The notes under the pieces: model-generated
Seen by the model: the letters and a program-made list of their open reading frames with translations, nothing else
The model's database searches: none
What the model was told of the DNA's origin: nothing
Source: a virus
Virus record (IMG/VR): IMGVR_UViG_3300032309_000931
Span: 1 to 64,000 of that record
Direction: 5' to 3' (one strand)
Length of the DNA stretch: 64,000 nucleotides
Made by a program: the position numbers and the translations under genes
Part shown: positions 4,977 to 63,332 of the stretch, piece by piece
Layout: the number at the start of each line of letters is the position of its first letter
Position numbering within the stretch: position 1 is the first letter of the stretch

Positions 4977-5757
4977 CTATTTGCTCCAGTGACTTAATTT
5001 GTATTGTCCCTGGACCAGCAATATCGCAAGTTGCCCTAACTGGACACGTCTTGCAAATTTTTGAGTTGGATCGATAGTTCTTAGTAGGAAGAGTTTTATT
5101 CTCCCAAGCACTACGAACTTGTCGCATCCAATCAAATGCGGAGTCTACCCACCCCTTAAGGTAATCGTTCAGGACTACTGGGAGTACAAGCAACTCGTGG
5201 TTATTCTTGTTCTCATAGATTAGTACTGCACGTTCCCTTCCAAGAATCTTCATATAGATAAGCAACTGTACAAGGTGACCAAGTTTTGGCTTCCCTGCGG
5301 CTTTACGATATTCAAATCCTTCATTTGGCATTGTTTTAATTTCGCCAAGCAAGTCTTCTCCACCCCATTTAAGAATTACGTCACCGTAACCAAAGATGGG
5401 TGGATCCTGACTTGTAATTTTAAATTCAGAGTCAACTAGGAGGTCTGGCACGTTTGCCATAGCTTGCTGGATACGTTCGTGTGACTTAGTTCCAGCAGTC
5501 ATATTGGCTCCACCATATGCATCTGCATTATCTGTAAATGTTGCACCCTCAAAAGCAATGTACCAGTAACGAGGACACTCTCCGTGGGAGAATGCAATTG
5601 TACTGGGGGCAAAGGTCTTCTTTTGCTGGTGCTTATCAACACGGTTAATAATATATCCGTGCTGAATCTTTTTGATTAGCTCGTCAGTGTCTAAGAACGA
5701 TGTCTTCTTGTCATTAGCACCCTTGAGCATAACCTGGTTTAGTAAATTTTTTGCCAT
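4954..5757 (-). CDS. Cas4-like PD-(D/E)xK exonuclease
   Basis: GECPR, GYGD...EIKT, QLLIY, C-terminal CxxC..C Fe-S ligands; start moved to MAKNLL. Confidence 0.8.
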   Translation of the reverse strand: MAKNLLNQVMLKGANDKKTSFLDTDELIKKIQHGYIINRVDKHQQKKTFAPSTIAFSHGECPRYWYIAFEGATFTDNADAYGGANMTAGTKSHERIQQAMANVPDLLVDSEFKITSQDPPIFGYGDVILKWGGEDLLGEIKTMPNEGFEYRKAAGKPKLGHLVQLLIYMKILGRERAVLIYENKNNHELLVLPVVLNDYLKGWVDSAFDWMRQVRSAWENKTLPTKNYRSNSKICKTCPVRATCDIAGPGTIQIKSLEQIDEALSMV

Positions 5758-5764
5758 AATGTTT

Positions 5765-6079
5765 TTAACGAGTAATATATTTAAGTGCAGCAACTAGCTC
5801 ATTGATTGAACTAGCGGCTGTAAAATAAATATTTTTCTTCGCCCTATCTCCCTTATCTACGTTTGCCATCCAAGTAGCCTTGAATGACATCTTAGCAGCA
5901 ATGGCTTGCAACCGAACAATTTCAATAGAGGCTACCTGTGCAGGAATCTCTGGCTTAAAAATGATCTTTGCAATAAACGTAAGAGCTTCGGTAAGCTCTT
6001 CATCGTTCATAAAATCAGCGATCTCACTGAGACCATTGACTCGTTCTAATGTTGTCTTTGTTTCTTCCATTGTTTCCAA
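5765..6079 (-). CDS. Hypothetical helical protein
   Basis: ORF preceded by TATAAT and AAGGA. Confidence 0.65.
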   Translation of the reverse strand: METMEETKTTLERVNGLSEIADFMNDEELTEALTFIAKIIFKPEIPAQVASIEIVRLQAIAAKMSFKATWMANVDKGDRAKKNIYFTAASSINELVAALKYITR

Positions 6080-56209: not shown

Positions 56210-56273
56210 ATTTCAGATACCTCCTCCTCTTATAAAGAGAAAACACCTTATTGGCTAAGGCGTTGTAGGTTCA

Positions 56274-56326
56274 AGTATAACAGAGTTTATTCGATATTGC
56301 AAATTGCAACTGTTACGAAATGTTAC
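56274..56326 (-). promoter_or_regulatory. SigA-type promoter for NlpC/P60 with GTAAC-N5-GTAAC repeat upstream of -35
   Basis: TTGCAA-17-TATACT with extended TG; repeat at 56312-56326. Confidence 0.55.
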
Positions 56327-57655: not shown

Positions 57656-57880
57656 TCTGAATAATTTTTTATTTGTCGTATGCGACGAATTCTGAATATT
57701 TTTTTTTATTTTTGGATTTAGACATTTTCTGAATAATTTGATTATGTGTATGATACACGATCTGAGAGAATAAAACACTAAATCTTAGTGAGCACACTGC
57801 CTAAGCACTGCCTCTAATCGAGAATTGACTACTGGTGCCACCTAATAAATAGGAATAGTACTAGTGACTAGTGCCACCTA
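57656..57880. repeat. Short direct repeats at the strand-switch junction
   Basis: TCTGAATA x3 (57656, 57691, 57728), CACTGCCT x2, GTGCCACCTA x2 (57835, 57871). Confidence 0.6.
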
Positions 57881-57885
57881 GTAAT

Positions 57886-58047
57886 CTAGGCTAGTGGAAT
57901 CCAAGACCCACACTCTAGGCACGTGTCCGTAGCAACGTGGAACCAAGATTCTTCGTCACACACTACGCAGTCAGCGATAGCGTATCCTTCAACGTGCTGT
58001 CCACTAGCGAGCATTTCGTCACATTCTTCTGAGAGTAGCATTTCCAT
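57886..58047 (-). CDS. 53-aa zinc-ribbon microprotein
   Basis: MEMLLSEECDEML...CVVC...CLECG; AAAGGACA RBS; own promoter at 58084-58105. Confidence 0.65.
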   Translation of the reverse strand: MEMLLSEECDEMLASGQHVEGYAIADCVVCDEESWFHVATDTCLECGSWIPLA

Positions 58048-58288
58048 TTGTCTGTCCTTTGTTTGTGTTTCTTTGATATCTAAATACTATGTCATAGCAC
58101 GGACATATAACTACCAATACCGCACATATTTAGGTGAACAATAGGTTAACAAATTTTGCGCCCCCCACGCAACATTCTTGCGTGTTTTTACGACTTACGC
58201 AATAAATCCCCAAATAGCCTGTTTTTAGCCCTATTCTGGTAGTTTTATGTCGGTGGTCGATGTTACACTAAATATATAAACAAACAGA

Positions 58289-58370
58289 GAAACCAAAGAG
58301 AGTGAGCCTCTCAGAGCAAATAAGACCCAAAGGGTATGAGCCTCTCAGAGCAAATAAATCTCAAGGTTTC
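58289..58370 (+). ncRNA. Structured leader with two copies of the RUGAGC/CAAAUAAR motif
   Basis: GAAACC..GAGA GTGAGC CTCTCAGAG CAAATAAG ACCC-AAA-GGGT ATGAGC CTCTCAGAG CAAATAAA TCTC..GGTTTC. Confidence 0.55.
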
Positions 58371-58388
58371 AGATAAGGATAGAAAATA

Positions 58389-58499
58389 ATGAATGAATTT
58401 CACGGAAATTGCCAAAAGTGTGGCACTTGGAATCGAATTGCGTTTGTAGGTTCGATGTCCCTTAGCCAATTGCTTTGCAAGGCTTGCCGTAACAAGTAA
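58389..58499 (+). CDS. 36-aa zinc-ribbon microprotein
   Basis: MNEFHGNCQKCGTWNRIAFVGSMSLSQLLCKACRNK; AAGGA RBS. Confidence 0.7.
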   Translation: MNEFHGNCQKCGTWNRIAFVGSMSLSQLLCKACRNK

Positions 58500-58691
58500 G
58501 CCCCATAGCTTGTGCATAAGTTATCCACAGGCGGCGCACCACCATATCTAGTAACATACTGACATTTACGTACTACATATAGATTCCCCTGAATTATAAC
58601 AAAATGGTAACATAGCGTAACAATAGGGCATATCGATTAGTTATATGTCGGTGGTCTGTGTTAGGCTGTAGACATAAAGAAAGGAAATGAA

Positions 58692-58814
58692 ATGAACGAA
58701 TTTCACGGTAACTGCCAGAACTGTAAGGTCTGGACAAAGGTAGCCTTCAATGGCTCAATGGGTCTGAGTGAGTTGCTCTGCTCGCTCTGCCGTATGACAC
58801 AGGCTACCAAGTAG
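58692..58814 (+). CDS. 40-aa zinc-ribbon microprotein (paralog of 58389)
   Basis: MNEFHGNCQNCKVWTKVAFNGSMGLSELLCSLCRMTQATK. Confidence 0.7.
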   Translation: MNEFHGNCQNCKVWTKVAFNGSMGLSELLCSLCRMTQATK

Positions 58815-58866
58815 TTTCGTGTCGTACCTCTAGGCTATACTGATAACAACAAGTAAGGACAAACAA

Positions 58867-59046
58867 ATGGAAATCGAAAACGAAATCGACATCAACGAAG
58901 TTGAGGACATCAACATCAACACTCTCACGCCTAAGCAAATGGCACTACGCCTAAACGCTCTCGTTCGTTTGGCTCAGGGTGAAACATTCACTACCCACGA
59001 TTTTGAGGAAGCCCTAACGCTCACTCGCAAACTGGCTAAGCGATAG
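58867..59046 (+). CDS. 59-aa microprotein with acidic N-terminus
   Basis: MEIENEIDINEVEDININ...; AAGGACA RBS after promoter. Confidence 0.65.
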   Translation: MEIENEIDINEVEDININTLTPKQMALRLNALVRLAQGETFTTHDFEEALTLTRKLAKR

Positions 59047-59054
59047 GGGAACCA

Positions 59055-59144
59055 ATGCTAGTCTCAAACATCGCCACAGTAATTTGTGTGCTACTAATCG
59101 GATACCTAATAATCTACATCGCTCAGGAGATAAGCAATGACTAA
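59055..59144 (+). CDS. 29-aa TM microprotein
   Basis: MLVSNIATVICVLLIGYLIIYIAQEISND. Confidence 0.5.
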   Translation: MLVSNIATVICVLLIGYLIIYIAQEISND

Positions 59145-59226
59145 ATGTAAAGAGTGTAAGCGTAACCTAACTGTAATAATCGAAAACTATCCTGATTTGT
59201 GTTGGTCGTGTGTGATGGAACAGTAG
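59137..59226 (+). CDS. 29-aa CxxC/CxxC microprotein
   Basis: MTKCKECKRNLTVIIENYPDLCWSCVMEQ; AGGAG RBS. Confidence 0.55.
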   Translation: MTKCKECKRNLTVIIENYPDLCWSCVMEQ

Positions 59227-59395
59227 GCGGATCGACTTATCCACAGCCCCCGAAAAGTTATCCACAGGGGGGCGCAAACTTATCCACAGCCTGTTAGTAA
59301 CTTAGTTACGAATTGTTACGAACTTTCCCTAAAATTCCCTAGTTTTATGTCGGTGGTCAATGATAAAATGTAAACATACAAGCAAAGGACAAAAA

Positions 59396-59512
59396 ATGAA
59401 CTGGTATCAAGTACTCGTAGAGTATGATGAAATGATTGGCACAATCTATGTTGCGGCAGATGAATTGGAAGCATTCAAGGCAAAGTATAAAGTGCTAAGC
59501 GTAATCATCTAG
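59396..59512 (+). CDS. 38-aa microprotein
   Basis: MNWYQVLVEYDEMIG...; AAAGGACA RBS. Confidence 0.65.
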   Translation: MNWYQVLVEYDEMIGTIYVAADELEAFKAKYKVLSVII

Positions 59513-59568
59513 GGTTTCGTGTCGGTGGTCGCTGGTATACTAATAACATAAACAAGAAAAGGACAATA

Positions 59569-59709
59569 ATGACAAAGAGTCGATACACAACCGTACTGGT
59601 GGAAATGCCAGACAAGATTTTTTTCCAAGCAATCCACATCTATGATTGGGCTAAGGAAATCGAATACTTGAAATCTCAGGGTGCTACTTCTATCACTATA
59701 GCCAAGTAG
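59569..59709 (+). CDS. 46-aa microprotein
   Basis: MTKSRYTTVLVEMPDK...; AAAGGACA RBS. Confidence 0.65.
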   Translation: MTKSRYTTVLVEMPDKIFFQAIHIYDWAKEIEYLKSQGATSITIAK

Positions 59710-59718
59710 TTATCCACA

Positions 59719-59768
59719 GGGGTATCGAATGAGCCTGTAGTTATCCACAGCAAATAAGTCGATACCCC
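59719..59768 (+). ncRNA. RUGAGC/CAAAUAAR motif copy 3
   Basis: GGGGTATCGA ATGAGC CTGT-AGTTATCC-ACAG CAAATAAG TCGATACCCC. Confidence 0.55.
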
Positions 59769-59901
59769 CAAAGTTATCCACAGGCTGCGCCCCACGCAAG
59801 TTTATTGCGTCTTTATGAAGATAGTTGCGTTTTCCCTGAATTGGGGGGTTTTATGTCGGTGGTCGGCTGTATACTGATAACATAGACAGAAAAGGACAAC
59901 T

Positions 59902-60081
59902 ATGACAAATCAACTCCCAGAAAACAAGGCAACTGCCGAACAGTATGAAACTCTCAAATCGCTTATCACAAAGCGTTACCCTGACGCAGACCTGCTTCAC
60001 ATCTACGCTTCACTCTCAGGCGTACTTTCAGTAGGCGTATCTGAAGAGGCTATGGCACGACTTATCGAACTACACCAGTAG
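59902..60081 (+). CDS. 59-aa microprotein
   Basis: MTNQLPENKATAEQYE...; AAAGGACA RBS. Confidence 0.65.
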   Translation: MTNQLPENKATAEQYETLKSLITKRYPDADLLHIYASLSGVLSVGVSEEAMARLIELHQ

Positions 60082-60133
60082 TTTCGTGTCGGTGCTCACC
60101 AGTATAATTGTAATACAAGCAGAAAAGGAAAAA

Positions 60134-60367
60134 ATGGAACAACTAATCGGAACAAACGTAAAAACACACAACCACGCTTATCTTGGTGAGGTTCGCAACG
60201 TGTCTAGACTGTTTGTAAAGCCTATCTATCGTCACCTGAGAGGCATTGAGGCTAACGAGCCTTATGTTGCCTACGCTGTCGAAATCGAAGGCTCGGACAG
60301 TCCTAAAGGCTGGACAACGCTTATCGCTCGTGATGAAGCAGACATCCTGAAGCGTTACGCAGTCTAA
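60134..60367 (+). CDS. Small hypothetical protein
   Basis: Start MEQLIG after AAAGGA. Confidence 0.65.
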   Translation: MEQLIGTNVKTHNHAYLGEVRNVSRLFVKPIYRHLRGIEANEPYVAYAVEIEGSDSPKGWTTLIARDEADILKRYAV

Positions 60368-60374
60368 TCCGTAA

Positions 60375-60416
60375 GGGGAGAGAGTGAGCCTCGCAAGAGC
60401 AAATAAATCTCTCCCC
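60375..60416 (+). ncRNA. RUGAGC/CAAAUAAR motif copy 4
   Basis: GGGGAGAGA GTGAGC CTC-GCAA-GAG CAAATAAA TCTCTCCCC. Confidence 0.55.
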
Positions 60417-60579
60417 AAACAGGATACATTCCAAAATGGGAATGTGTGTCAATCTCAAAAAAATGCGCCCCCCCCCACCCCTAGCCTTAATTACGAATTA
60501 AGAAAACAAATCCCAGATTCCCGAATTAGATGTCGGTGGTCAATGTTATACTGTATACATAACGAAAGGACATAAGCAA

Positions 60580-60846
60580 ATGGCTTACTCAAACACTCAC
60601 GCAGATTTCTACCAGACGGCTATGGGGACTATGGTCACAGAGCCTCAGTCGGCTTGGGATACCTCTACTCACTGTGCAGACTGTGGCGTTCAGTACGCTT
60701 ACTGTGGCTGCCCCAACGAGGACATTGACGAGCCTGTTGATGGCTTTGCTGTCTGTGCTGTCTGCGACTATACCGTTCGTGGACTATTCTATCTCAATGG
60801 GGATTCAACTGGTCGCTGTGCTGGATGCCATAACTCTATTCGATAG
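60580..60846 (+). CDS. Cys-rich zinc-binding protein
   Basis: CADC..CGC..CAVC..CAGC; AAAGGACA RBS. Confidence 0.7.
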   Translation: MAYSNTHADFYQTAMGTMVTEPQSAWDTSTHCADCGVQYAYCGCPNEDIDEPVDGFAVCAVCDYTVRGLFYLNGDSTGRCAGCHNSIR

Positions 60847-60985
60847 GAGTTATCCACAGGCTGGGGCGCAGCTTTTGATCCTAGACATAATTACGTAAGC
60901 ATTAAAAATACCCTGGAAATTTCCCTAGTTTTATGTCGGTGCTCAGATGTATAATTATATTATCAACCAAACAAAGGACAAAGTA

Positions 60986-61537
60986 ATGACTACTCTCACC
61001 GCTAACGAAATTCACACCGCAACTGCTACAGATTTGTACCGTGACCTGATTGTTCGTGCTACTCTTGGACAGGTCGAACAGGCTAGTGTCTGGTATCACG
61101 AAGCACAAGAAGTTGCCCAAGAGGTTGCTCGTAATCTGGACACAACGCTAGAGGTTGGTGCTAGTGTCGTATCTGCGTTTTCTCCTCGTGAGCGTTGGGC
61201 AAGCAACATCGAAAAGGCTGTGGCGTTCTCACTTGGACACACGCCTAAAGGATTGGGCAACAACCTCAAAATGGCACAGTCCTCGCTGACTGCTGGATTC
61301 TATGCCCTCAAGGGTCTCAAGACTAATGCGTTTGCTCGTGCCATTGCTGGAGATACTGACGCTGTTGTGATTGACATTTGGATGATGAGAGCGGCAGGTA
61401 TGGAAACTGATAGCCCAACTCAAGGACAGTATTTCGCACTCTCACTTGCTTGCCGTAATGTCGCTAAAGAATTTGGGCTTACTCCTCGCACCGCACAGGC
61501 TCTGATTTGGATTCTCGTGAGAGGCTCAGCAATCTAA
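60986..61537 (+). CDS. HhH-GPD/DNA glycosylase-like helical protein
   Basis: WY..A..VA, SAFSP..RW..N, GLKTNAF, VVIDIW..RA, P..AQALIW. Confidence 0.55.
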   Translation: MTTLTANEIHTATATDLYRDLIVRATLGQVEQASVWYHEAQEVAQEVARNLDTTLEVGASVVSAFSPRERWASNIEKAVAFSLGHTPKGLGNNLKMAQSSLTAGFYALKGLKTNAFARAIAGDTDAVVIDIWMMRAAGMETDSPTQGQYFALSLACRNVAKEFGLTPRTAQALIWILVRGSAI

Positions 61538-61653
61538 GGGCTACCCCGAAAGGGGTTGCGCCCCACGCAGCTTTCTTGCGTAATTACGAACAATTTTTGT
61601 TTTTCCCTAAATTTGGGTAGTTATGTGTCGGTGCTCTGATGTATACTAATACT

Positions 61654-61818
61654 ATGAAGAAAAAGAACCCAACTCACAAAGGTATTGAGAACAAGCCCTA
61701 CATTGAGGCTATGCGTGAATTGCGTAGGTCTAACGCAGCCACTACCCACGACAACCGCCCTAACCGTTTGCGTACTCGCAAAGCAATCAAAACCCAAGCA
61801 ATCAAGGAGAACGAATAA
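61654..61818 (+). CDS. 54-aa basic microprotein, leaderless
   Basis: MKKKNP...MRELRRSNAATTH..R.RTR; ATG 6 nt after TATACT. Confidence 0.65.
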   Translation: MKKKNPTHKGIENKPYIEAMRELRRSNAATTHDNRPNRLRTRKAIKTQAIKENE

Positions 61819-61985
61819 TGGAATGTGAATTCTGCACTAATGAAAAACTGGCTACCGTTTCGGTTATGCACCTGCGTGACCGTATCGAACAAGCCGCCTG
61901 TGGCAAGTGTGCCAACGACCTATCTGATGAAAAGTGGGTAGTCACTCACGAATTCGACACATCTATCTGGGATTTTGCAGGGTAG
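61818..61985 (+). CDS. 55-aa zinc-finger microprotein
   Basis: MECEFC...ACGKC; TAATG coupling, AAGGAG RBS. Confidence 0.6.
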   Translation: MECEFCTNEKLATVSVMHLRDRIEQAACGKCANDLSDEKWVVTHEFDTSIWDFAG

Positions 61986-62040
61986 TTATGTGTCGGTGGT
62001 CTAGGTTATAATAGTAATACGAACAAAGAAAAGGACAGAA

Positions 62041-62214
62041 ATGAAAAAGTACAACTTCACTGGTTTCGCATTCGGTAGTAACGGAGAAATGGTTTTCCGT
62101 ATTGAGGTTCTGAACCACACCGAAAACGGAACAAATGTTTCCACCCAAATCGATTTGGAACTCACACCAGAGGAACGAACCGAACTCATCACCCAACTTA
62201 TCTCAATCAAGTAG
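62041..62214 (+). CDS. 57-aa microprotein
   Basis: MKKYNFTGFAFGSNG...; AAAGGACA RBS. Confidence 0.65.
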   Translation: MKKYNFTGFAFGSNGEMVFRIEVLNHTENGTNVSTQIDLELTPEERTELITQLISIK

Positions 62215-62265
62215 TTTGGTGTCGGTGCTTCACGCTATAATAGAACTACGAACAAAGGACAATAA

Positions 62266-62445
62266 ATGAAAGACACAATCAACCGTTCAGGTGAGGTAAT
62301 CGAAAATCTCACAATCGCACAGGGTGACCGCCGTTATGCTTACGCATTTGCGTTTGGATTTGCGTGGTCTTTGCTCTCGGAAAAGAACCGTAAAGAGTTG
62401 CTGAAAATCTCAGAACGAAAAGCACAAGAAAAGGACAACGACTAA
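62266..62445 (+). CDS. 59-aa microprotein
   Basis: MKDTINRSGEVIENL...YAFAFGFAWSLL; AAAGGACA RBS. Confidence 0.6.
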   Translation: MKDTINRSGEVIENLTIAQGDRRYAYAFAFGFAWSLLSEKNRKELLKISERKAQEKDND

Positions 62446-62642
62446 TGACAAAGTATCCAGAAATCGAAGTACAACTTACAGGACAAGACGGCAACGCATT
62501 CGCAATTATGGGTGCGGTATCTCGTGAACTCCGCAAGGCTGGGGTATCCAAAGAGGAAATCAACGAATACACTACGCAATCTATGTCTGGCGACTATGAC
62601 AACCTTTTGCGTACTGCTATGGCTTGGGTGAGTGTATCCTAA
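62445..62642 (+). CDS. Conserved phage hypothetical protein
   Basis: LTGQDGNAFAIMG.V...LR.AG...SGDYDNLL. Confidence 0.75.
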   Translation: MTKYPEIEVQLTGQDGNAFAIMGAVSRELRKAGVSKEEINEYTTQSMSGDYDNLLRTAMAWVSVS

Positions 62643-62821
62643 TGATGACACGCAAAGACTATGTAGCCGTTTCAGAATTGCTGAACACCTACGCTCTCAA
62701 AATAGATGAGCAAACATTCGACCTACTCATTCACGACTTTGCTGGACTGATGGCAAAGGACAATGAGCGTTTCATCGCTGACCGTTTCATCTCCGCTTGC
62801 TGGAATGGCGAGAATGCTTGA
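62642..62821 (+). CDS. Conserved phage hypothetical protein
   Basis: MTRKDY...DNERF..DRF..AC. Confidence 0.7.
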   Translation: MMTRKDYVAVSELLNTYALKIDEQTFDLLIHDFAGLMAKDNERFIADRFISACWNGENA

Positions 62822-62879
62822 GATTATTGTTATCACGCTGGGGGTATTGGCAGTACTCCTGGCGTGGTTCAATGACTAA
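62814..62879 (+). CDS. 21-aa TM peptide
   Basis: MLEIIVITLGVLAVLLAWFND; overlaps upstream stop. Confidence 0.35.
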   Translation: MLEIIVITLGVLAVLLAWFND

Positions 62880-62998
62880 AATTTTGCGCCCCCCTGCCCT
62901 CACAAACCTATTACTAACCTTACGATCTTTTTCCCGAAATTCACAGAGTTTGATGTCGGTGGTACTTGGTATAATAGAAACATAACGAAAGGACACTA

Positions 62999-63304
62999 AT
63001 GAACGACGGAACATACCTCAACCTTGACGGAAAGTTTATTCTCTCTCACGCCAAGTCTGGCTATTGGGTAGCCGTTCACAAGTACGACAGCCTTGACGAC
63101 ACTATTTCAGGGGATTACGTAGGCGTGTGGACAAATCCCGAAACTGGCGTTATGTACCTTGACCGTAGCGTTTGGGTGTCTGACTTGGACAACGCTATCG
63201 CTCTGGGTAAGTCACAAGGACAATTGGCTATCTGGGACTGTGCCAATGAAACAGAAATCTGGCTCAACGAATACTTTGCCGATGTATTCAAAGACGAAGT
63301 TTGA
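62999..63304 (+). CDS. Hypothetical protein
   Basis: YVGVW...YLDRS...A..LG..GQLAIWD; AAAGGACA RBS. Confidence 0.75.
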   Translation: MNDGTYLNLDGKFILSHAKSGYWVAVHKYDSLDDTISGDYVGVWTNPETGVMYLDRSVWVSDLDNAIALGKSQGQLAIWDCANETEIWLNEYFADVFKDEV

Positions 63305-63332
63305 TGTCGGTACTCCCCTGTATAATTAGACT

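Follow-up and report, generated by a model that had tools for sequence, protein, structure and literature searches.

A portable internal-loop RNA module in uncultured freshwater phages and its predicted place in early leaders

Four copies of a conserved loop motif found in the DNA of a virus (IMG/VR record IMGVR_UViG_3300032309_000931, the first 64,000 nucleotides of which constitute the window analysed here) very probably belong to a genuine structured RNA family. Large and undescribed, the family is absent from every catalogue checked, and its members are restricted to one abundant clade of freshwater phages that have not been cultured. Its unit is an asymmetric internal loop, in which 5'-(R)UGAGC-3' lies opposite 5'-C(A/G)AAUAA(R/Y)-3', placed between two helices of free sequence, and its build is unusual insofar as an internal loop of 12-13 nt serves as a portable module, one to three of which can be stacked in a hairpin with either orientation, the purine pair that closes the loop being A.G in some copies and G.A in others. 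The hairpins built in this way, hereafter referred to as rods, would be part of the first RNA made after infection.

Extent, fold and covariation of the family

The motif family is present on at least well over 100 IMG/VR stretches and, among the matches listed, at least 159 distinct rods were parsed from 135 of these stretches plus the present record; these homologs bear out the setting in actinophage and freshwater viromes that the original prediction had envisaged. The same prediction had proposed a comparison with Rfam, and no family was matched: Rfam 15, which includes the hammerhead, twister, pistol, hatchet and HDV-like ribozymes as well as riboswitches, gave no match for the whole window at the gathering threshold, only a chance snoRNA match elsewhere when the region 58100-60600 was searched at E values up to 10, and nothing other than tRNAs for eight homologous loci. 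The motif was found in none of 50,697 GenBank phages and no cultured phage has it; a literature search by sequence words returned nothing relevant to the motif, and the literature on conserved hairpins or intergenic repeats in the early genes of freshwater actinophages gave no match by keyword. Within cellular genomes the tandem form was encountered only in a handful of MAG contigs, namely four short ones (1.1-9.7 kb) and another of 85 kb, each of which is probably phage DNA, while the single-module model R1 had no match in 151 genomes (G006 and others of its phylum), an empty result that carries little weight.

The two loop strands are near-invariant, the sole recurrent variant being CGAAUAA, in which the second base of the 3' strand is G in place of A, and every flanking helix covaries. 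In the alignment of tandem rods (A1) 84.7% of the cells are paired compared to 63.0% in shuffles, and 208 double-sided changes are seen compared to 67, neither value being reached in any of 500 shuffles; if the registers are slid, the paired fraction amounts to 22-58%. The alignment of single modules (A2) behaves likewise, with 92.0% of the cells paired versus 74.1% in shuffles (0 of 500 reaching this level), and eight complementary variants of the central helix occur among the homologs. These homolog alignments bear out what had been proposed from the four copies, namely an unrecognised structured motif with invariant loop strands and covarying helices. The purines closing the loop are A..G in 63 cases, G..A in 25 and G..G in none, as expected of the covarying non-canonical G.A/A.G pair that had likewise been suggested.

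A rod may contain one, two or three modules, in direct or inverted order, the architectures being ab, abab, aabb and aababb with variable caps; the commonest form is dyad-symmetric and consists of two identical 16-nt strands. The length of the outer helix varies freely between 4 and 12 bp, the inner or central helices beside the loops are mostly of 3-5 bp, and two loops are spaced by 4, 5 or 9 bp. Many of the caps are GNRA tetraloops and, as the loop has about the size of a tetraloop receptor, the module could be imagined to be a self-assembling RNA, e.g., a receptor for the GNRA caps, or else a self-cleaving ribozyme. Both are very improbable, inasmuch as many other caps are not GNRA, no ribozyme family was matched even at E values up to 10, and no known ribozyme core is as small as a single 12-nt loop flanked by two short helices. 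Indeed, a ribozyme is the least likely of the functions originally suggested, because no known class matches and because copy number and orientation are modular.

Two known internal loops invite comparison. [quoted passage not shown] The kink-turn, defined by tandem sheared G.A pairs (PMC12510878), is also asymmetric, one of its strands being longer by about three bases and the shorter one having GA beside a G-C pair. However, the tandem sheared G.A pairs cannot both form in the module because the longer strand, which reads C(A/G)AAUAA in all members, has UA where the kink-turn needs GA, and the record contains no gene of the L7Ae family.

The three rods of the window

The combination UGAGC…CAAAUAA occurs exactly four times in the window, always on the + strand, where 0.04 occurrences are expected; the pattern TGAGCC-N(3-20)-GCAAATAA is matched at 58303-58323, 58337-58357, 59730-59757 and 60385-60406, all on the + strand, and none of 100 shuffles gives four matches, so that the number of copies originally counted is upheld. 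No further copies are present elsewhere in the 93,875-bp (93.9-kb) virus record. Two weak model matches were taken as chance, one at 56239-56282 on the - strand (14.9 bits), which begins right at a -10 hexamer and deviates from the loop at two positions, and the other at 57779-57809 on the + strand (15.6 bits), which is devoid of the 3' strand.

The four copies make up three hairpin rods, located at 58289-58371, 59719-59768 and 60375-60416, which fold more stably than shuffled sequence, with z values of -2.9, -4.5 and -4.0, respectively. The outer stems described at the outset (GAGA at 58298 with TCTC at 58359, ACCC at 58325 with GGGT at 58332, and stems of 10 and 9 bp) agree in their coordinates with the sequence, the inner hairpins are present as they had been given, and the closing purines of copies 1 to 4 are G..A, G..A (written 3'G / 5'A at the cap), A..G and G..A.

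Rod 1 (58289-58371, + strand) comprises copies 1 and 2 as two modules, one of which is inverted. Its outer helix is formed by 58289-58294/58366-58371 plus 58298-58301/58359-58362, a GAAACC/GGUUUC helix lengthening the rod, and is followed by module A (5' strand 58302-58307, 3' strand 58351-58358), by a central helix of 9 bp with one C.C mismatch (58308-58316 with 58342-58350), by the inverted module B (58317-58324 with 58336-58341) and by the cap hairpin at 58325-58335. This rod scores 41.6 bits with the tandem model R2, in the seed of which it is itself included, and it is kept in the orthologs L337, L343 and L185, the central helix being reduced in L185 to the 4-bp CUAG. The rod lies in the leader of the first + strand gene, the ATG of which is at about 58389. 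The original prediction had likewise placed copies 1 and 2 in the leader of the first plus-strand transcript, and had folded them as a symmetric four-way junction. The latter structure is rejected: the inner segments of the homologs are either too short to fold alone (CUAG) or not self-complementary (CUUAG/CUAAG, CUAC/GUAG) and, because they can pair only with each other, copies 1 and 2 must form one rod with two inverted loops, which is also the minimum-energy structure given by RNAfold.

Rod 2 (59719-59768, + strand; copy 3) is a single module that lies directly after the stop codon of the ORF 59569-59709 and consists of a 10-bp outer helix (59719-59728/59759-59768), an A-UGAGC / CAAAUAA-G loop and a 4-bp inner helix, whose cap is an 8-nt loop holding a DnaA-box-like word. 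Its orthologs include L352, in which the outer stem is compensated, and L415, which has a different inner hairpin. Three co-oriented TTATCCACAG boxes are found on the + strand within 59710-59783, starting at 59710 before the rod, at 59741 inside it and at 59774 behind it; the first (59710-59719) abuts the outer stem and the second (59741-59750) falls inside the inner hairpin, confirming the overlap of copy 3 with a DnaA box. As the L415 ortholog is without the box, a DnaA-type box is not part of the RNA family. A predicted terminator-like hairpin with a U-rich tail (59794-59816, + strand) follows 26 nt downstream of the rod and a second terminator-like site is predicted at 59832-59848, a strong U tract being present in just one of the predicted downstream hairpins.

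Rod 3 (60375-60416, + strand; copy 4), also a single module, starts 8 nt past the stop codon of the ORF 60086-60367. It is formed by a 9-bp outer helix (60375-60383/60408-60416), a G-UGAGC / CAAAUAA-A loop and a 3-bp inner helix capped by a GCAA tetraloop; its covariance-model score is 44.6 bits (rod 3 itself being in the seed) and its orthologs occupy the corresponding gene end in L352, L415 and L185.

Early leaders and PafBC-type promoters

Of 143 rods, 100 are followed within 100 nt by the start of an RBS-led ORF of at least 35 amino acids, compared to 1 of 143 on the antisense side. This sense orientation in leaders (100 to 1) favours RNA over ssDNA, the two alternatives that had initially been offered. 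As a check of the single-strand sense fold, G.U was compared with A.C; the counts, which are small, are 13 and 13 in all and 4 and 3 at internal positions. Upstream of the rods a sigma-70-like promoter is found within 90 nt in 87 of 159 cases, compared to 98 of 795 positions chosen at random, the -10 element mostly ending 20-35 nt before the rod, and a TGTC(A/G)G-N10-TAnnnT promoter is found within 40 nt in 61 of the 159. Judging from these sequence data, rods occur mainly in the 5' leader, on the sense strand, right where early transcripts begin. Genomes of 90-112 kb carry only one to three rods, which in G002, G003 and L221 include divergent pairs 1.3-1.7 kb apart, and in the sublineage of the present phage rods are found additionally at two early gene ends. 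The genes beside the rods are unrelated small early genes to which no family was assigned and, since the first gene downstream differs between sublineages, a rod serves the transcript and not one gene. Type III antitoxins (ToxI-like) are head-to-tail repeats of about 34-36 nt beside the gene of a toxin endoribonuclease; the modules are instead nested or inverted inside one hairpin, with neighbours of the kind just described.

The conserved internal-loop pocket, the 5' leader position and the tandem copies would be compatible with a sensor of small molecules or ions, i.e., a riboswitch aptamer arranged in tandem for cooperativity. We consider this highly unlikely: an expression platform is missing, the outer helix, with its length of 4 to 12 bp, never overlapping an RBS or a terminator, the downstream genes are unrelated, and copies are present at gene ends too.

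The promoter feeding rod 1 (58248-58269, + strand) consists of TGTCGGTG and TACACT, 8 nt apart, and has a geometry that we take to be that of the PafBC-dependent RecA-NDp promoter of actinobacteria. The RecA-NDp motif, through which PafBC acts, is non-palindromic (PMC6789036). The strict form TGTC(A/G)GTG-N8-TAnnnT is present in 98 of 135 rod-bearing stretches and in 6 of 103 control IMG/VR stretches, its density being 18 times higher in the former, and the rod-bearing phages appear, as far as promoter sequences tell, to express their early genes with the help of PafBC-type promoters, i.e., those of the host DNA-damage response. Because the record encodes a WhiB gene and arrays of PafBC-type promoters, an actinobacterial host is probable, and the rod-bearing clade probably infects Actinomycetota.

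This abundance of PafBC-type motifs, together with the position of the rods in the first RNA made and the restriction of the family to phages, raises the question of whether the rods might be a decoy or ligand RNA that, being made first after infection, binds and switches a host protein, either a defence or toxin nuclease or the WYL-domain activator PafBC, on which the promoter array of the phage itself seems to rely. The WYL domains of PafBC do need a nucleic-acid effector and accept single-stranded stretches flanked by hairpins (PMC11804915). In vitro, however, ssDNA activated PafBC, whereas a 12-nt ssRNA of identical sequence did not (PMC11804915); furthermore, the co-occurrence of rods and motif may only mirror the shared ancestry of one phage clade, and a decoy for a single defence is not expected to be invariant over so broad a clade, so that a decoy or ligand role is improbable. 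The more specific proposal that the module is an RNA effector which, made first, switches on the host PafBC, either by mimicking the ssDNA damage signal or by binding PafBC or RNA polymerase in some other way, is a long shot; were it true, the array of PafBC-type promoters would fire without DNA damage, and the module, as an RNA agonist of a WYL regulator, would be the first of its kind and would represent a new viral takeover of a stress regulon.

The sensing of ssDNA by PafBC (PMC11804915) and the DnaA-box words that flank and enter rod 2 could also speak for an element acting as DNA, i.e., an extruded or single-stranded hairpin involved in replication, DnaA loading or PafBC activation. This reading is scarcely credible: extrusion from duplex DNA of helices of 3-5 bp with 12-24 unpaired bases per strand is energetically implausible, the orientation is tied to transcription and the DnaA word is missing from orthologs.

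Possible roles on early RNA and candidate partners

The reading towards which we lean, tentatively and by analogy, is that the module is a factor-recognition site on nascent early RNA, comparable in role to lambda nut or HK022 put. The invariant loop would be bound by a single conserved partner that acts in trans and encounters the early RNA while it is being made; the folded module, by itself or together with a small phage protein, would contact the host RNA polymerase during elongation, shortly after promoter escape, early transcription would thereby stay processive across the terminator-like hairpins that separate the numerous small early cassettes, and extra modules would raise occupancy. 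We know of no nut/put-like system in Actinomycetota; the partner of the module would reveal by what means these phages regulate or safeguard early transcription in these hosts, and the module could yield a compact recognition pair of RNA with either a protein or RNA polymerase.

Like put and nut, the rods are phage-encoded, would act in cis on nascent early RNA just downstream of early promoters, combine a conserved structure with free helix sequences and are present in small numbers in a genome, in some cases with one for each of two divergent early operons. The low number of rods per genome, the divergent pairs, the change of the first downstream gene between sublineages, the location of rod 2 just upstream of terminator-like hairpins and the restriction of the family to phages were counted in favour of such a role. 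On the other hand, there is neither sequence nor architectural likeness, the rods displaying neither the two-stem put fold nor the boxA and boxB pentaloop hairpin of which nut consists. HK022 has two put RNAs of roughly 70 nt, one just downstream of PL and the other about 270 nt past PR, which need no protein in order to act on RNA polymerase and have the fixed shape of a V made of two long stem-loops with a triplex (PMC9378689), whereas a rod contains one, two or three copies of a single internal loop, in either orientation. Both the single, double or triple use of the module and the occurrence of both orientations with 3-9 bp between the loops fit poorly with a put-like docking on the polymerase in one fixed shape. 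Furthermore, most early cassettes of this phage have their own promoter, which makes a need for read-through less evident, and all but one of the predicted downstream hairpins are devoid of a strong U tract, which also speaks against this reading.

The RNase III signals of the T7 early region are reported (Dunn and Studier 1983) to be hairpins with a conserved asymmetric internal loop that lie in the leader and between the early genes. As the main rival to the recognition site, a possible, if less likely, role of the rods is that of processing or stability sites resembling these signals, either cut or bound by an RNase that is specific for double strands or for the loop (host RNase III or a phage enzyme) or blocking RNase J/E and 3' exonucleases. 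Their anatomy is that of the T7 signals, a sequence-conserved asymmetric internal loop between free, covarying helices, and their placement matches too, in the leader of the first early gene everywhere and at two gene ends in this sublineage; moreover, the rods are very stable, and the two identical 16-nt strands of the commonest rod, with their dyad symmetry, would suit a homodimeric nuclease. RNase III, however, prefers roughly two turns of duplex, and the helices of 3-5 bp beside the loops are far shorter than this and than those of T7, even if a rod, with its outer helix of 4-12 bp, might stack to about 20 layers. The loop sequence is also unrelated to that of T7, up to three loops are present per rod at variable spacing (4, 5 or 9 bp), a plain stabiliser has no need of 12 invariant loop bases, and the record encodes no RNase III.

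For the recognition site that we tentatively favour, partner candidates were sought by the co-occurrence of early proteins with rods at 136 loci. The most widespread early protein, present at 80 of the 136, has 59 amino acids, begins with MMTRKDY and is encoded in the window at 62642-62818. It is acidic, has three helices in its predicted fold (pLDDT 87) and gave no match in Pfam, PHROG, PDB sequences or Foldseek; it is unlikely to be an RNA-binding partner. What may be offered as a generic lead, as distinct from evidence, is a basic protein of ~50 amino acids, often duplicated and found at 53 loci (G000 65718-65864, outside the window), the predicted fold of which is an SH3/Tudor/KOW-like barrel with weak matches (E 0.07-0.3, TM about 0.7).

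Modular loops arranged in rods

The sequence UGAGC followed by a short hairpin and CAAAUAA occurs at four sites in the region 58000–60700; exact matches begin at 58303, 58337, 59730 and 60385, all on the + strand (chance expectation 0.04), and neither pattern search nor relaxed regular expression nor covariance model disclosed an additional copy in the full 93,875-bp record, whose first 64 kb constitute the window. The original prediction had listed these same four copies and no others, and its stem coordinates and inner hairpins proved right throughout when compared with the sequence. The unit is an internal loop in which 5′-(R)UGAGC-3′ (strand a) is opposite 5′-CAAAUAA(R/Y)-3′ (strand b), flanked by two helices of free sequence. 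When up to one change per strand was allowed and the helices were required (136 hits vs 9 in a reversed-sequence control), CGAAUAA was the sole recurrent loop variant, the others being no commoner than in the control. One, two or three modules make up a hairpin, hereafter a rod, either nested with all modules pointing the same way or inverted about a short central helix; the 159 listed rods comprise 56 of type ab, 84 abab, 6 aabb and 13 aababb.

The two “inner” segments of abab rods pair with each other, since neither can self-fold, and the resulting central helices include CUAG/CUAG, CUUAG/CUAAG, CUAAG/CUUAG, CUAC/GUAG, CUAAU/AUUAG, CUAGG/CCUAG, AUAG/CUAU and CUGAG/CUCAG. In the close relative L185, the ortholog of copies 1 and 2 has a 4-bp CUAG central helix, and the RNAfold minimum-energy structure of 58289–58371 is that same two-loop rod. 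Thus, copies 1 and 2, for which a four-way junction had been proposed, constitute a single rod with two inverted loops (rod 1, 58289–58371), as the homologous inner segments also indicate. Copies 3 and 4 correspond to rod 2 (59719–59768) and rod 3 (60375–60416), and the fold energies of all three structures are well under those of shuffled controls (z −2.9 to −4.5).

RNAfold centroids contain an additional G-C pair, with the last C of UGAGC bulged. A K-turn was rejected because that motif, as defined in PMC12510878, needs GA on the longer strand at a position where this loop has UA. The loop carries the sequence signature of the UAA/GAN motif, with UAA on one strand and GAG on the other, which amounts to a resemblance only.

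Covariation and distribution

In the tandem alignment (84 sequences) 84.7% of the cells are paired vs 63.0% in shuffles, double-sided changes amount to 208 cells vs 67, and the covariation score is 0.345 vs 0.086, a value matched by 0/500 shuffles; pairing falls to 22–58% when the partner is slid by 1–3 columns. The single-module alignment (48 sequences) is 92.0% paired vs 74.1% when shuffled, a level reached by 0/500 shuffles, and in the 90 listed tandem rods the outer stem comes in 45 different versions and the cap in 53. The outer loop-closing position has two forms. One has a purine on both strands (A/G 63, G/A 25, A/A a few, G/G never), which bears out the covarying non-canonical pair previously suggested; the other lacks the extra 5′ base and has one additional pyrimidine on the 3′ strand. 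The rods are a genuine, strongly covarying phage RNA family of modular internal-loop design.

This family is apparently undescribed. The Rfam scan that had been recommended was run against Rfam 15 with the window at gathering thresholds, the region at E up to 10 and eight homologous loci, and returned no family, in keeping with the claim that the motif is unrecognised; likewise, 50,697 GenBank phage records yielded no match. IMG/VR is rich in the motif, about 120 or more stretches carrying each of three different exact patterns, and structural filtering left a sample of at least 159 distinct rods from 135 IMG/VR stretches and this record. The family may be among the 10,006 unnamed candidates that were predicted from IMG/VR (PMC10690425). 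Across 596 Gb of bacterial and archaeal genomes, paired copies of the 16-nt tandem word were confined to five MAG contigs, four of them short (1.1–9.7 kb); the fifth (L315, CAZCDW010000001.1; 85 kb), binned as Bifidobacterium, has three tandem rods within 4 kb and is most likely a phage of the rod-bearing clade. From this count and from the absence of matches to the single-module covariance model in 151 genomes (the cellular genome G006 and others of its phylum), the element is phage-specific as far as visible.

Leader position and candidate functions

The rods belong to leaders and lie on the sense strand: 100/143 rods have the start of an RBS-led ORF no more than 100 nt downstream (1/143 on the opposite strand), and a sigma-70-like promoter lies within 90 nt upstream of 87/159 listed rods vs 12% of random positions, the distance from the end of the −10 element being mostly 20–35 nt. 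Near-complete genomes (90–112 kb) contain only 1–3 rods, and G002, G003 and L221, among the genomes and stretches compared, have two on opposite strands 1.3–1.7 kb apart, as in divergent early units. The rods are placed in the first RNA made after infection, and since the first downstream gene varies between sublineages, the module serves transcripts and no one gene.

Rod 1 lies downstream of the first promoter (58248) of the + strand early array; rods 2 and 3, also +, follow the stops of ORFs 59569–59709 and 60086–60367, respectively, the next promoter being 86–115 nt further on. Only about eight listed rods likewise come after an ORF, lack an upstream promoter and have no gene starting immediately downstream; most belong to the sublineage of this phage (this record, L352, L415, L185 and L076), and L131 and L426 also have rods of this kind. 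Those of the relatives correspond to copies 3 and 4. An ACGCAA...TTGCG hairpin with a U-rich tail, likely a terminator, recurs at cassette boundaries (58166–58189 and 59794–59816, +), and in L352, L415 and L185 the same hairpin lies downstream of the rod 3 ortholog.

Twelve loop bases are frozen while all their surroundings drift, which points to one conserved partner, either a protein or the machinery of transcription or decay. A single module suffices, and neither the number of modules nor their orientation or spacing is constrained, which argues against a rigid dimer as the binder and against one fixed shape formed by RNA alone; a ribozyme or self-assembling RNA is highly improbable, as is an action of the element at the DNA level. 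A riboswitch, too, deserves very little credence because an expression platform is absent. Our tentative preference is that the rods would be recognized on the nascent RNA as nut/put-like signals, given that their placement mirrors that of HK022 putL/putR (PMC9378689) and that terminator-like hairpins lie downstream of rod 2. The chief alternative, a rather doubtful one, is a processing or stabilising site in the style of T7, which would share both the anatomy (a conserved asymmetric loop with covarying stems) and the leader and intercistronic positions, but for RNase III the helices of the rods are very short.

Promoters, host and neighbouring genes

The portal protein shares 47% identity with Streptomyces phage portals, and a WhiB-family gene (41.3 bits, above cut-off) lies outside the window at 85488–85661 (−) of the full record; the WhiB family serves as a marker for Actinomycetota and for the phages that infect them. 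The record contains 16 strict copies of TGTCGGTG-N8-TAnnnT, all +, forming an array from 58248 to 63315 and onward to 68142 and 87584 of the full record, with one copy ahead of nearly every small early gene. The array looks like the promoter recognized by PafBC, a WYL-domain transcription activator of Actinobacteria, and its geometry presumably matches the RecA-NDp consensus. The promoter motif is present in 98/135 rod-bearing stretches vs 6/103 control IMG/VR stretches, at an 18x higher density, and TGTC(A/G)G-N10-TAnnnT is found within 40 nt upstream of 61/159 listed rods. This enrichment, together with several small early proteins common to rod-bearing phages, indicates that the rod motif characterizes a single broad clade, probably one of actinophages.

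PafBC acts via the non-palindromic RecA-NDp motif (PMC6789036). A decoy or effector role for the rod RNA seems unlikely; one form of it would be an RNA that engages PafBC, in line with the strong association of rods with PafBC-type promoters and with the acceptance by PafBC of single-stranded stretches between hairpins, but a 12-nt ssRNA did not activate PafBC in vitro (PMC11804915).

The first genes downstream of rod 1 encode two paralogous 36–40 aa proteins (MNEFHGNC...; 58389–58499 and 58692–58814, +) with CxxC...CxxC zinc-ribbon signatures and no family match. The most widespread early protein of the clade (80/136 loci) is a 59-aa acidic three-helix protein starting MMTRKDY (62642–62818, +), which has no match in Pfam, PHROG or by fold. 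A basic protein of ~48 aa encoded outside the window (65718–65864 of the full record, +; 5718–5864 of the stretch L437), common to 53 loci and frequently represented by two paralogs in the same phage, is predicted to form an SH3/Tudor/KOW-like barrel and is a possible nucleic-acid binder.

Between early cassettes there are eight perfect TTATCCACAG (DnaA-box) words, all in one orientation, at 58521, 59237, 59258, 59280, 59710, 59741, 59774 and 60850, with further ones at 71199 (+), 71824 and 71836 (both −) of the full record and similar boxes in the relatives L352, L076 and L221; the cluster may be an origin, or may serve in DnaA titration or sensing. Eight phage tRNA genes (Asp, Arg, Met, Lys, Tyr, Ser, Thr and Asn) are located outside the window at 66582–66654, 76197–76359 and 88554–89371 of the full record.
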